DNA of 64,000 bases. Source: a virus (lineage: Duplodnaviria > Caudoviricetes). Location: the IMG/VR virus record IMGVR_UViG_649989997_000001, positions 50,552 through 114,551 of that record; one strand, given 5' to 3'. Within the stretch, counting starts at the first letter, position 1. Every line of letters begins with the position of its first letter. The notes below the pieces were generated by a model that was not told the origin of the DNA, made no database searches, and saw only the letters and a program-made list of their open reading frames with translations. The translations under genes were made by a program, and so were the position numbers. Positions 42,211-42,303 of the stretch are shown here, piece by piece.

Positions 42211-42303
42211 CCCCCAGGGGGCGGTCAAATCTCTACAATCTTTTGCCGTGGTGACCGGCGCTGGGTCACGCGCACAAAAACGACAATTCAAACGGGGGAT
42301 TAA
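42211..42303 (+). other. Satellite copy of the phage cos/packaging region
   Basis: AGGGGGCGGTCAAATCTCTA-N17-GACCGG-N12-CGCACAAAAACG-N4-TTCAAACGGGG, identical in blocks and spacing to the reverse complement of 454-547. Confidence 0.78.

Follow-up and report, generated by a model that had tools for sequence, protein, structure and literature searches.

A predicted helper-type cos site on a terminase-less satellite lodged in a prophage tail-tube gene

Why should a mobile element without terminase genes carry, in one of its intergenic stretches, a segment that matches the DNA ahead of a phage terminase gene? This question is raised by a stretch of 64,000 nt (hereafter the window) that corresponds to bases 50552-114551 of a 114,551-bp IMG/VR record. 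The record holds two related phage units, prophages A and B, in the same orientation and 87-92% identical in their shared modules, and a satellite. A preliminary description of this DNA had read the shared segment as a set of packaging-recognition elements through which the satellite uses helper packaging, and this proposal was supported in every comparative test that we ran (family profile, gene context and satellite retention).

Copies of the element and the satellite that carries one of them

The satellite segment (42211-42303, plus strand) and that of prophage A (454-547, minus strand) could be aligned without gaps. Pairwise alignment and a repeat finder reproduced the arrangement originally described, with four common blocks (20/20 positions, GACCGG, 12/12 and 16/17) that are separated in both copies by spacers of 17, 12 and 4 nt whose sequences have diverged. 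On the plus strand of the satellite, block 1 is located at 42211-42235 and followed by a spacer at 42236-42252; block 2 (GACCGG) lies at 42253-42258, ahead of a variable G/C spacer at 42259-42270; block 3 occupies 42271-42282, and after a spacer at 42283-42286 comes block 4 at 42287-42303. The extent defined by the profile described below, 42209..42306 on the plus strand, relies on the block comparison and on an nhmmer match at contig 92760-92857. Within the 64 kb of the window, the block-1 18-mer has two sites, those of the satellite and prophage A copies, and the gapped pattern of blocks 3-4 is also confined to these two copies. Two matches were obtained in none of 100 dinucleotide shuffles, and a chance origin of the shared blocks is excluded. 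The element is on the plus strand and all satellite genes are on the minus strand, that is, the copy is inverted with respect to the genes of its carrier, as had been noticed before.

In prophage A the element (454..547, minus strand; nhmmer match at contig 51003-51100, 77.3 bits) ends 17 nt upstream of the start codon of terS, a P27/Terminase_4 gene (2..436, minus strand; Pfam PF05119) of which the N-terminal 145 aa are in the window and the full sequence is at contig 50427-50987. The element had been placed between HNH and terS. The terS gene does adjoin it, but the gene for the HNH endonuclease of the packaging-associated type (1190..1546, minus strand; Pfam PF01844) does not, as a RelB/YafQ toxin-antitoxin pair (555..1167, plus strand; Pfam PF04221 and PF15738) intervenes. 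The same pair, on the opposite strand and exactly between the HNH stop codon and block 1, is also present at loci L015, L024, L048, L072, L083 and L091, and a second toxin-antitoxin pair, 38-50% identical, occupies the same slot in L031, L071 and L086. This slot at the genome end would seem to be a hotspot of addiction modules.

A third copy of the element was located outside the window, at contig 2862-2954 on the minus strand, with about 90% identity to the prophage A copy, flanks included. Contig bases 1-754 equal bases 113797-114551 (window 63246-64000) at 99.7% identity, so the ends of the record overlap. The assembly would then be circular or tandem and the packaging genes of prophage B would have the third copy upstream of them; it would be the cos of this prophage if the contig ends are joined. 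This bears out the earlier statement that the cos of prophage B falls outside the window. The record may represent a circular molecule or prophages arrayed in tandem, or it may result from a loop in the assembly. The helper measures 48-66 kb from cos to cos in the assembly, a possible tandem or circular artefact, and owing to the two related units and the overlapping ends neither the genome size of the helper nor the capsid-fill ratio is certain.

The borders of the satellite could be read from its flanks. An ORF that ends at 53879 and another that starts at 40167 are in frame when joined over a 4-nt core and together give a 199-aa protein, which aligns across the junction with intact tail-tube homologues of related phages and improves the E value from 5e-5 to 2.5e-13. 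The satellite is thus the segment 40168..53878 (minus strand; 13,711 bp) inside the tail-tube gene of prophage B, whose N-terminal part is at 53879..54292 and whose C-terminal part is at 39982..40167, both on the minus strand. The same junction is found in L174. The satellite is therefore inserted in, and shares the orientation of, one of the helper's late genes.

Among the satellite genes, all on the minus strand, replication is represented by a D5/primase-helicase (44744..47038; Pfam). There are in addition 202-, 165- and 171-aa proteins without an assigned role and a restriction-modification cargo. A lone HK97-fold capsid homologue of 311 aa (42441..43376; Pfam PF05065, PHROG 10) resembles the Ccm protein mentioned below: its residues 44-309 align with residues 123-389 of the helper capsid at 38% identity (BLASTP), and its N-terminal region is 79 residues shorter. 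After this gene, between it and the cos element, a terminator-like hairpin (42393..42424, minus strand) with 7 bp of G+C and then a short T-rich tract was read from the sequence, at a place where the consensus scan gave no call. The cos element lies between the capsid homologue and the TnpW/recombinase genes. Its nearest neighbor is the gene for a TnpW-like small protein (41980..42186; Pfam PF14202), which starts 23 nt from the element and is followed by that for the satellite integrase, a TnpX-like large serine recombinase whose tail is DUF4368 (40232..41974; Pfam). Neither HNH nor terS adjoins the satellite copy, as expected of a hijacker. When TerS, TerL, HNH, portal and ClpP were compared with the satellite by tblastn nothing appeared below E 0.2; Pfam and PHROGs scans of the satellite ORFs gave no terminase, portal, protease or packaging HNH, and no match to AlpA was seen among the scanned ORFs.

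The first two genes of the satellite (52635-53716) encode an amidoligase-like protein (PHROG 2443) and a 100-aa PHROG 3782 protein. They are 38-55% identical to a gene pair kept between terS and terL in phages of the family described in the next section, near an Nmad4 gene; through them the satellite may have copied a function in DNA modification or one associated with packaging.

The element in Firmicutes phages and the predicted position of the cut

The exact block-1 17-mer was found in more than 87 IMG/VR contigs. In about 75 of the matches listed, an HNH gene ends about 25 nt ahead of it, a P27-type terS follows at 100-115 nt, and all three have the same orientation. The proteins encoded at these loci are only 30-57% (HNH) and 28-55% (TerS) identical to those of prophage A, which means that the DNA of the element is far better conserved than the flanking proteins. 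To avoid circularity, loci were sampled again by protein homology only, 80 of them selected by TerS and 80 by HNH. The TerS-selected loci presented the four-block, nearly gap-free architecture ahead of terS, and a profile match was observed directly after HNH in 78 of the 80 HNH-selected loci; in one of the two exceptions, the contig stops at the HNH stop codon. The element is a conserved, length-constrained, non-coding DNA of about 105 bp, present in hundreds of Firmicutes phages in the interval from HNH to terS.

The cos profile was built from 47 unique sequences of the TerS-selected phage loci and has 109 model positions. The satellite copy matched it (nhmmer) with 76.6 bits and an E value of 5e-22 along model positions 8-105, the prophage copies reaching 77.3 and 77.8 bits. 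At the columns that are invariant in the family, the satellite is identical to its helper in 42 of 44 cases, and at the remaining columns in 31 of 61; the blocks described earlier coincide exactly with the invariant positions of the family. The full profile score, the retention of the invariant columns and the divergence of the remainder argue for a lineage held by selection. Over the core, 68-70% of positions agree between the satellite copy and the two prophage copies, and up to 74% between it and the copies of unrelated phages. As the satellite cos is no closer to that of its resident helper than to those of unrelated phages, it belongs to an old satellite lineage and is not a recent copy. 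The term mimic, used in the preliminary description, has to be replaced by homologue, since the satellite copy is a full-scoring member of a widespread cos family and not a convergent mimic.

Some variation was observed around the element in the phages. In many of them (L019, L025 and others), the HNH frame continues through block 1, which encodes the last HNH residues, and in other phages HNH ends just ahead of block 1; the DNA of the block is conserved either way. In L031 (1888-3050) and L072 (2432-3600), about 1 kb is inserted between block 4 and terS, and the start of terS is found 1164 nt after block 1, compared with the usual distance of about 102 nt.

The order HNH, element, terS (P27), terL, portal, ClpP and capsid is the established layout of HK97-type phages with HNH-dependent 3'-cos ends. 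Prophage B encodes terL (60036..61637, minus strand; Pfam PF20441 and PF03354), whose product would be the nuclease and motor acting on the satellite cos, together with portal, ClpP protease and an HK97-type capsid. In many cos-ended phage records, a homologue of the prophage A HNH (33-42% identity) is encoded at the very right end.

To place the cut we considered three phages with described ends. For Bacillus phage B13, a 3' overhang of 14 nt was predicted with PhageTerm and supported by restriction analysis (OP066531, bases 1-14; PMC9610010). In the record of Bacillus phi105 (HM072038) the P27 TerS starts at base 60 and a 7-nt cohesive end is annotated; in that of Burkholderia phi1026b (AY453853) terS starts at base 46 and HNH ends 102 nt from the right end. 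All three share with the phages of our family the order HNH, cos, terS, terL and a cut about 45-75 nt upstream of terS. In a positional alignment made by eye, and convincing at that level, the cohesive end of each begins at a GACC-type motif or directly behind it, and in phi105 and phi1026b an A-rich motif similar to block 1 lies 16-17 nt upstream of it. The overhang of B13 closely resembles the segment of prophages A and B that starts at block 2. These sequences are too diverged for detection with the cos profile, which has no match at the sites of B13, phi105 or phi1026b. The ends of these phages, at or next to block 2, would place the cut in the variable G/C spacer, and the cohesive end probably corresponds to the diverged stretch from block 2 to block 3. 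In the satellite, the predicted cohesive-end segment (block 2 plus the G/C-rich spacer) would be at about 42252..42266 on the plus strand, a prediction of position only, because the overhangs differ in length (7, 10 and 14 nt) and the exact nick positions cannot be read from these phages.

The ends of the contigs gave a further indication. Of the 13 TerS-selected contigs that lack upstream DNA, five have their first base 70-125 nt upstream of terS and just past block 1, against an expectation of about 0.5, and one of these, L151, begins at the position equivalent to the left end of phi1026b. This enrichment is only a hint of cleavage, because these starts are spread across about 30 nt and do not coincide at a single base. 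The record ends of Enterococcus phiSHEF2 and Geobacillus PK3.5 were uninformative; PK3.5 has a similar element but an arbitrary record start.

Related satellites and their cos types

Relatives of the capsid homologue were taken from IMG/VR and GTDB genomes, and one more satellite, L062, came from the block-1 scan. Homologues at about 36% identity are ordinary phage capsids encoded beside terL, portal and protease, and L062 (37%) and the relatives at 44-95% are satellites with the same set of primase, TnpW and recombinase. In all eight satellites with usable context (capsid-like identity of 37-95%), a match to the cos profile was present immediately beside the capsid-like gene. Two arrangements were observed. 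The first is that of our satellite, of L174, which is the same satellite at 95-97% identity and occupies the same tail-tube position, and of L294, with proteins 52% and 57% identical: an inverted element follows downstream of the capsid-like gene and immediately precedes TnpW. In L062, L203, L295, L296 and L297 it is directly upstream of the capsid-like gene and co-oriented with the genes. L175 and L176 present a weaker match (blocks 1-3), then a terS homologue of their own and then the capsid-like gene. This order, which is that of a phage cos-terS-capsid module, points to the descent of the satellites from such a module.

Two satellites carry more than one site. L296 has two tandem cos elements with different block 4 (8776-8978), and L297 has one cos upstream (8860-8962) and a second one downstream (9960-10060), inverted and of the other block-4 type; these satellites may have a dual helper specificity. 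In phages, the variant of block 4 goes with the N-terminal type of TerS, in 66/82, 17/24, 6/6 and 6/6 cases for the four types, and block 1 is constant. Furthermore, the terS type of L175 and L176 matches their block-4 variant, and the cos of our satellite has the same block-4 type as its helper. The correlation fits an assignment of blocks 3-4 as a TerS-specific cosB and of blocks 1-2 as the nuclease side, and shared ancestry could be an alternative source of the link between block 4 and TerS type in phages.

From these observations a joint reading can be drawn, which we put forward tentatively and consider possible rather than likely. According to it, the satellite cos would be modular and tuned to the helper, with universal blocks 1-2 on the nick side and TerS-matched alleles of blocks 3-4, so that L296 and L297 could parasitise two helper lineages. 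In the members embedded in a helper (our satellite, L174 and perhaps L294), the inverted orientation would spare the cos from termination by the helper terminase, and only the excised and replicated satellite would be packaged. The link between inversion and embedding rests on two or three lineages. A scan of the ORFs flanking L294 for signs of prophage embedding gave no Pfam or PHROG match, and L296 adjoins a chromosomal holA-like gene. When helper cos sites were searched by BLAST in the genomes with satellites L294-L297 and L203, only the satellites' own copies appeared. Judging by the relatives, the hosts are Clostridia (Ruminococcus, Oscillospiraceae, and MAGs from rumen or caecum).

Proposed packaging by the helper, rival readings and known systems

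We consider it likely, with good confidence, that 42209-42306 is a working cos site and that the satellite, which has no terminase, would be cut and packaged by the TerS, TerL and HNH of its helper. The sequence of events would be the following. On induction, the serine recombinase would excise the satellite, restoring the tail-tube gene of the helper, and the D5 primase-helicase would replicate the excised form. The helper TerS would bind blocks 3-4, the cosB, which in phages is the side facing terS. Block 2 and the variable G/C spacer would constitute cosN, where TerL with HNH would make staggered nicks and generate cohesive ends, and block 1, at the flank, would serve for recognition or termination, perhaps by TerL/HNH. 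Units of 13.7 kb from cos to cos would next be packaged by the helper terminase toward blocks 3-4, probably into small capsids directed by the Ccm-like shortened capsid homologue, and prophage B would supply the tails. The predicted overhang of the satellite differs from that of the helper at about 5 of 15 positions, so the model requires that nicking be set by the flanking blocks; this would explain why the blocks and their spacings are conserved and the spacer between blocks 2 and 3 is not.

Which prophage would act as helper depends on the step considered. TerS is 96% and TerL 95.5% identical between prophages A and B, and the use of either terminase is plausible. In this respect the earlier suggestion that the satellite could hijack either prophage stands. 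It does not hold for the tails: prophage A keeps replication, packaging and head genes, and no part of the tail module is left. Its capsid gene and two connector genes are followed, outside the window (L006:3368-3548, contig 39368-39548), by a third connector reduced to 38 aa. This stub runs into the end of the lysis-side genes and the recombinases: it is fused to the final ~35 aa of a 366-aa gene and to a 139-aa gene, which in prophage B stand ahead of the two serine recombinases. With the tail module of prophage A lost, tails would come from prophage B only. Prophage A is thus either defective or an element that forms capsids and steals tails.

Other readings of the element have to be weighed against packaging. 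The cos could be a non-functional relic of the phage cos-terS-capsid module ancestral to the satellite, and L175 and L176, which keep cos, terS homologue and capsid-like gene, do suggest that the module was inherited from a phage and that terS was lost in this satellite. A relic is expected to decay, however, and the satellite copy scores as high as the phage copies, with 42/44 invariant positions kept while the variable ones diverged to about 50% and with every spacer length preserved. Moreover, no satellite examined has lost the element, even where the capsid-like identity falls to 37-52%, and it is kept in two arrangements, all of which makes a relic improbable. We give equally little credit to the idea that the element is regulatory DNA, that is, an operator or late promoter for a helper late activator (e.g. 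the sigma-like DUF1492 protein encoded by prophage A at 1672-2112, minus strand) or for TerS as a regulator, whose blocks in the satellite would sense late expression of the helper and time the TnpW-recombinase operon. Its location is suggestive, since in phages it lies directly upstream of terS, the first late gene, and in the satellite it fills most of the gap ahead of the TnpW/recombinase operon. But its orientation with respect to the neighboring genes flips between satellite clades, here it points away from TnpW and toward the hairpin and a convergent gene, and no sigma-70-like promoter was called inside it; the mapped cohesive ends of B13, phi105 and phi1026b lie within the homologous segment, and contig ends are enriched at the element. 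A dual role, as cut site and regulatory DNA, may also be considered.

The short distance of 23 nt between the element and the start of the TnpW-recombinase operon could further suggest a recombination site, either an attP or accessory site for the TnpX-like recombinase or a phage target of that transposon-like element. This possibility has almost no credibility for us, because the true junctions, with their 4-nt core, map in the tail-tube gene (40167/40168 and 53878/53879), hundreds of phage copies have no such recombinase nearby, and in other satellites the element is across the capsid-like gene from the recombinase. By the position of these junctions, an identity as att site was rejected. 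An RNA element was also rejected, as RNAalifold on 40 diverse copies gave -0.46 kcal/mol and four pairs with no compensatory change. In line with these rejections, an Rfam scan of the window gave no match, the consensus scan called neither promoter nor terminator inside the element, and no tRNA or tmRNA target was found.

Packaging of the satellite through a helper-type cos has counterparts in known systems. SaPIbov4 and SaPIbov5, with helpers phi12 and phiSLT, are cos-type staphylococcal islands (PMC5052747, PMC8569155), and the Ccm protein of SaPIbov5 is an HK97-fold capsid homologue with a shortened N-terminal domain that redirects capsid size (PMC5052747). Our satellite resembles them in its size of about 14 kb, in having no terminase of its own, in its conserved copy of the helper cos, in an HNH-dependent cos-phage helper and in a lone capsid homologue with a shortened N-terminus, here a putative size determinant. 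It differs in belonging to an unrelated lineage and host (gut/rumen Clostridia, judging by relatives), in using a serine recombinase and TnpW instead of a tyrosine integrase, in integrating into the tail-tube gene of the helper instead of a chromosomal att site, and in its restriction-modification cargo. In addition, its capsid homologue is 38% identical to the helper capsid, compared with ~19% for Ccm, and is shortened by 79 residues at the N-terminus, compared with 44. The helper-type cos, the absence of terminase genes, the shortened capsid homologue, the integrase and replication module of its own and a length of 13,711 bp, a fraction of the helper size, are those of a cos-type (SaPIbov5-like) satellite. 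Very likely, then, we are dealing with a SaPIbov5-like element embedded in its helper, a known strategy in a new lineage.

The HE-PICI 11capE has no terS and its cos region of 258 bp is 90% identical to that of its helper (PMC10111431). Our satellite is similar to HE-PICIs in the lack of terS, in a cos-region sequence common with the host prophage and in its insertion in, and co-orientation with, a helper late gene. Unlike 11capE, it shares only the invariant blocks of the cos with the helper (68-70% overall), and in contrast to HE-PICIs its cos is inverted relative to that of the helper. HE-PICIs are enterobacterial, with tyrosine integrase and lambdoid helpers; the serine recombinase of our satellite places it outside this tyrosine-integrase clade. 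Nor were the features found that define a strict PICI, with its tyrosine integrase, AlpA/Stl-type regulation and dedicated chromosomal att site. With its serine recombinase, its integration in a tail-tube gene and no AlpA match, the satellite would work like a cos-type PICI and is not classed as a PICI. The cos-packaged PICIs of Gram-negative bacteria (EcCICFT073 type) and P4 also have helper-type cos sites and depend on the helper terminase; Gram-negative PICIs redirect packaging via Rpp and P4 resizes capsids via Sid. No homologue of Rpp or Sid was seen in our satellite, where the size determinant appears to be the capsid homologue.

A DNA-similarity search of GenBank for cos-ended relatives returned only predicted prophages (Javan, NatCom) and chance matches, and a literature search with the block-1 sequence returned only unrelated primer matches, with no mention of the NatCom accession numbers in the literature searched; no description of such satellites or of this cos motif was found in the literature search. 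What is new in this case is the bare cos on a terminase-less satellite of this lineage, the family-wide map of invariant positions and the relatives with two cos sites. The helper-cos strategy, so far worked out in Staphylococcus, would thereby be extended to uncultured gut and rumen Clostridia and to a serine-recombinase satellite lodged in a helper tail gene. The map covers an HK97-type cos of hundreds of Firmicutes phages, with 44 key positions, the expected cut and the half that is expected to carry TerS specificity, and could be useful to predict helper-satellite pairings and transduction routes in microbiomes as well as packaging signals for vectors of gut Firmicutes.

Some minor features of the region should also be mentioned. 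An accessory island between the two prophage units contains, at window 25439-26860, the gene for a 204-aa TNT (tuberculosis necrotizing toxin-like NADase) protein beside a weak SIR2-like ORF and an MFS transporter. A family of repeats of about 164 nt is represented at window 23873-24036, 26190-26360, 28349-28420 and 44164-44338, two of the copies being 96% identical and two partial. The satellite itself contains one of them, flanked by the primase and the 165/202-aa genes; the remaining three are external to it and have the MFS, TNT-domain and SIR2-like genes and the recombinases in their vicinity.
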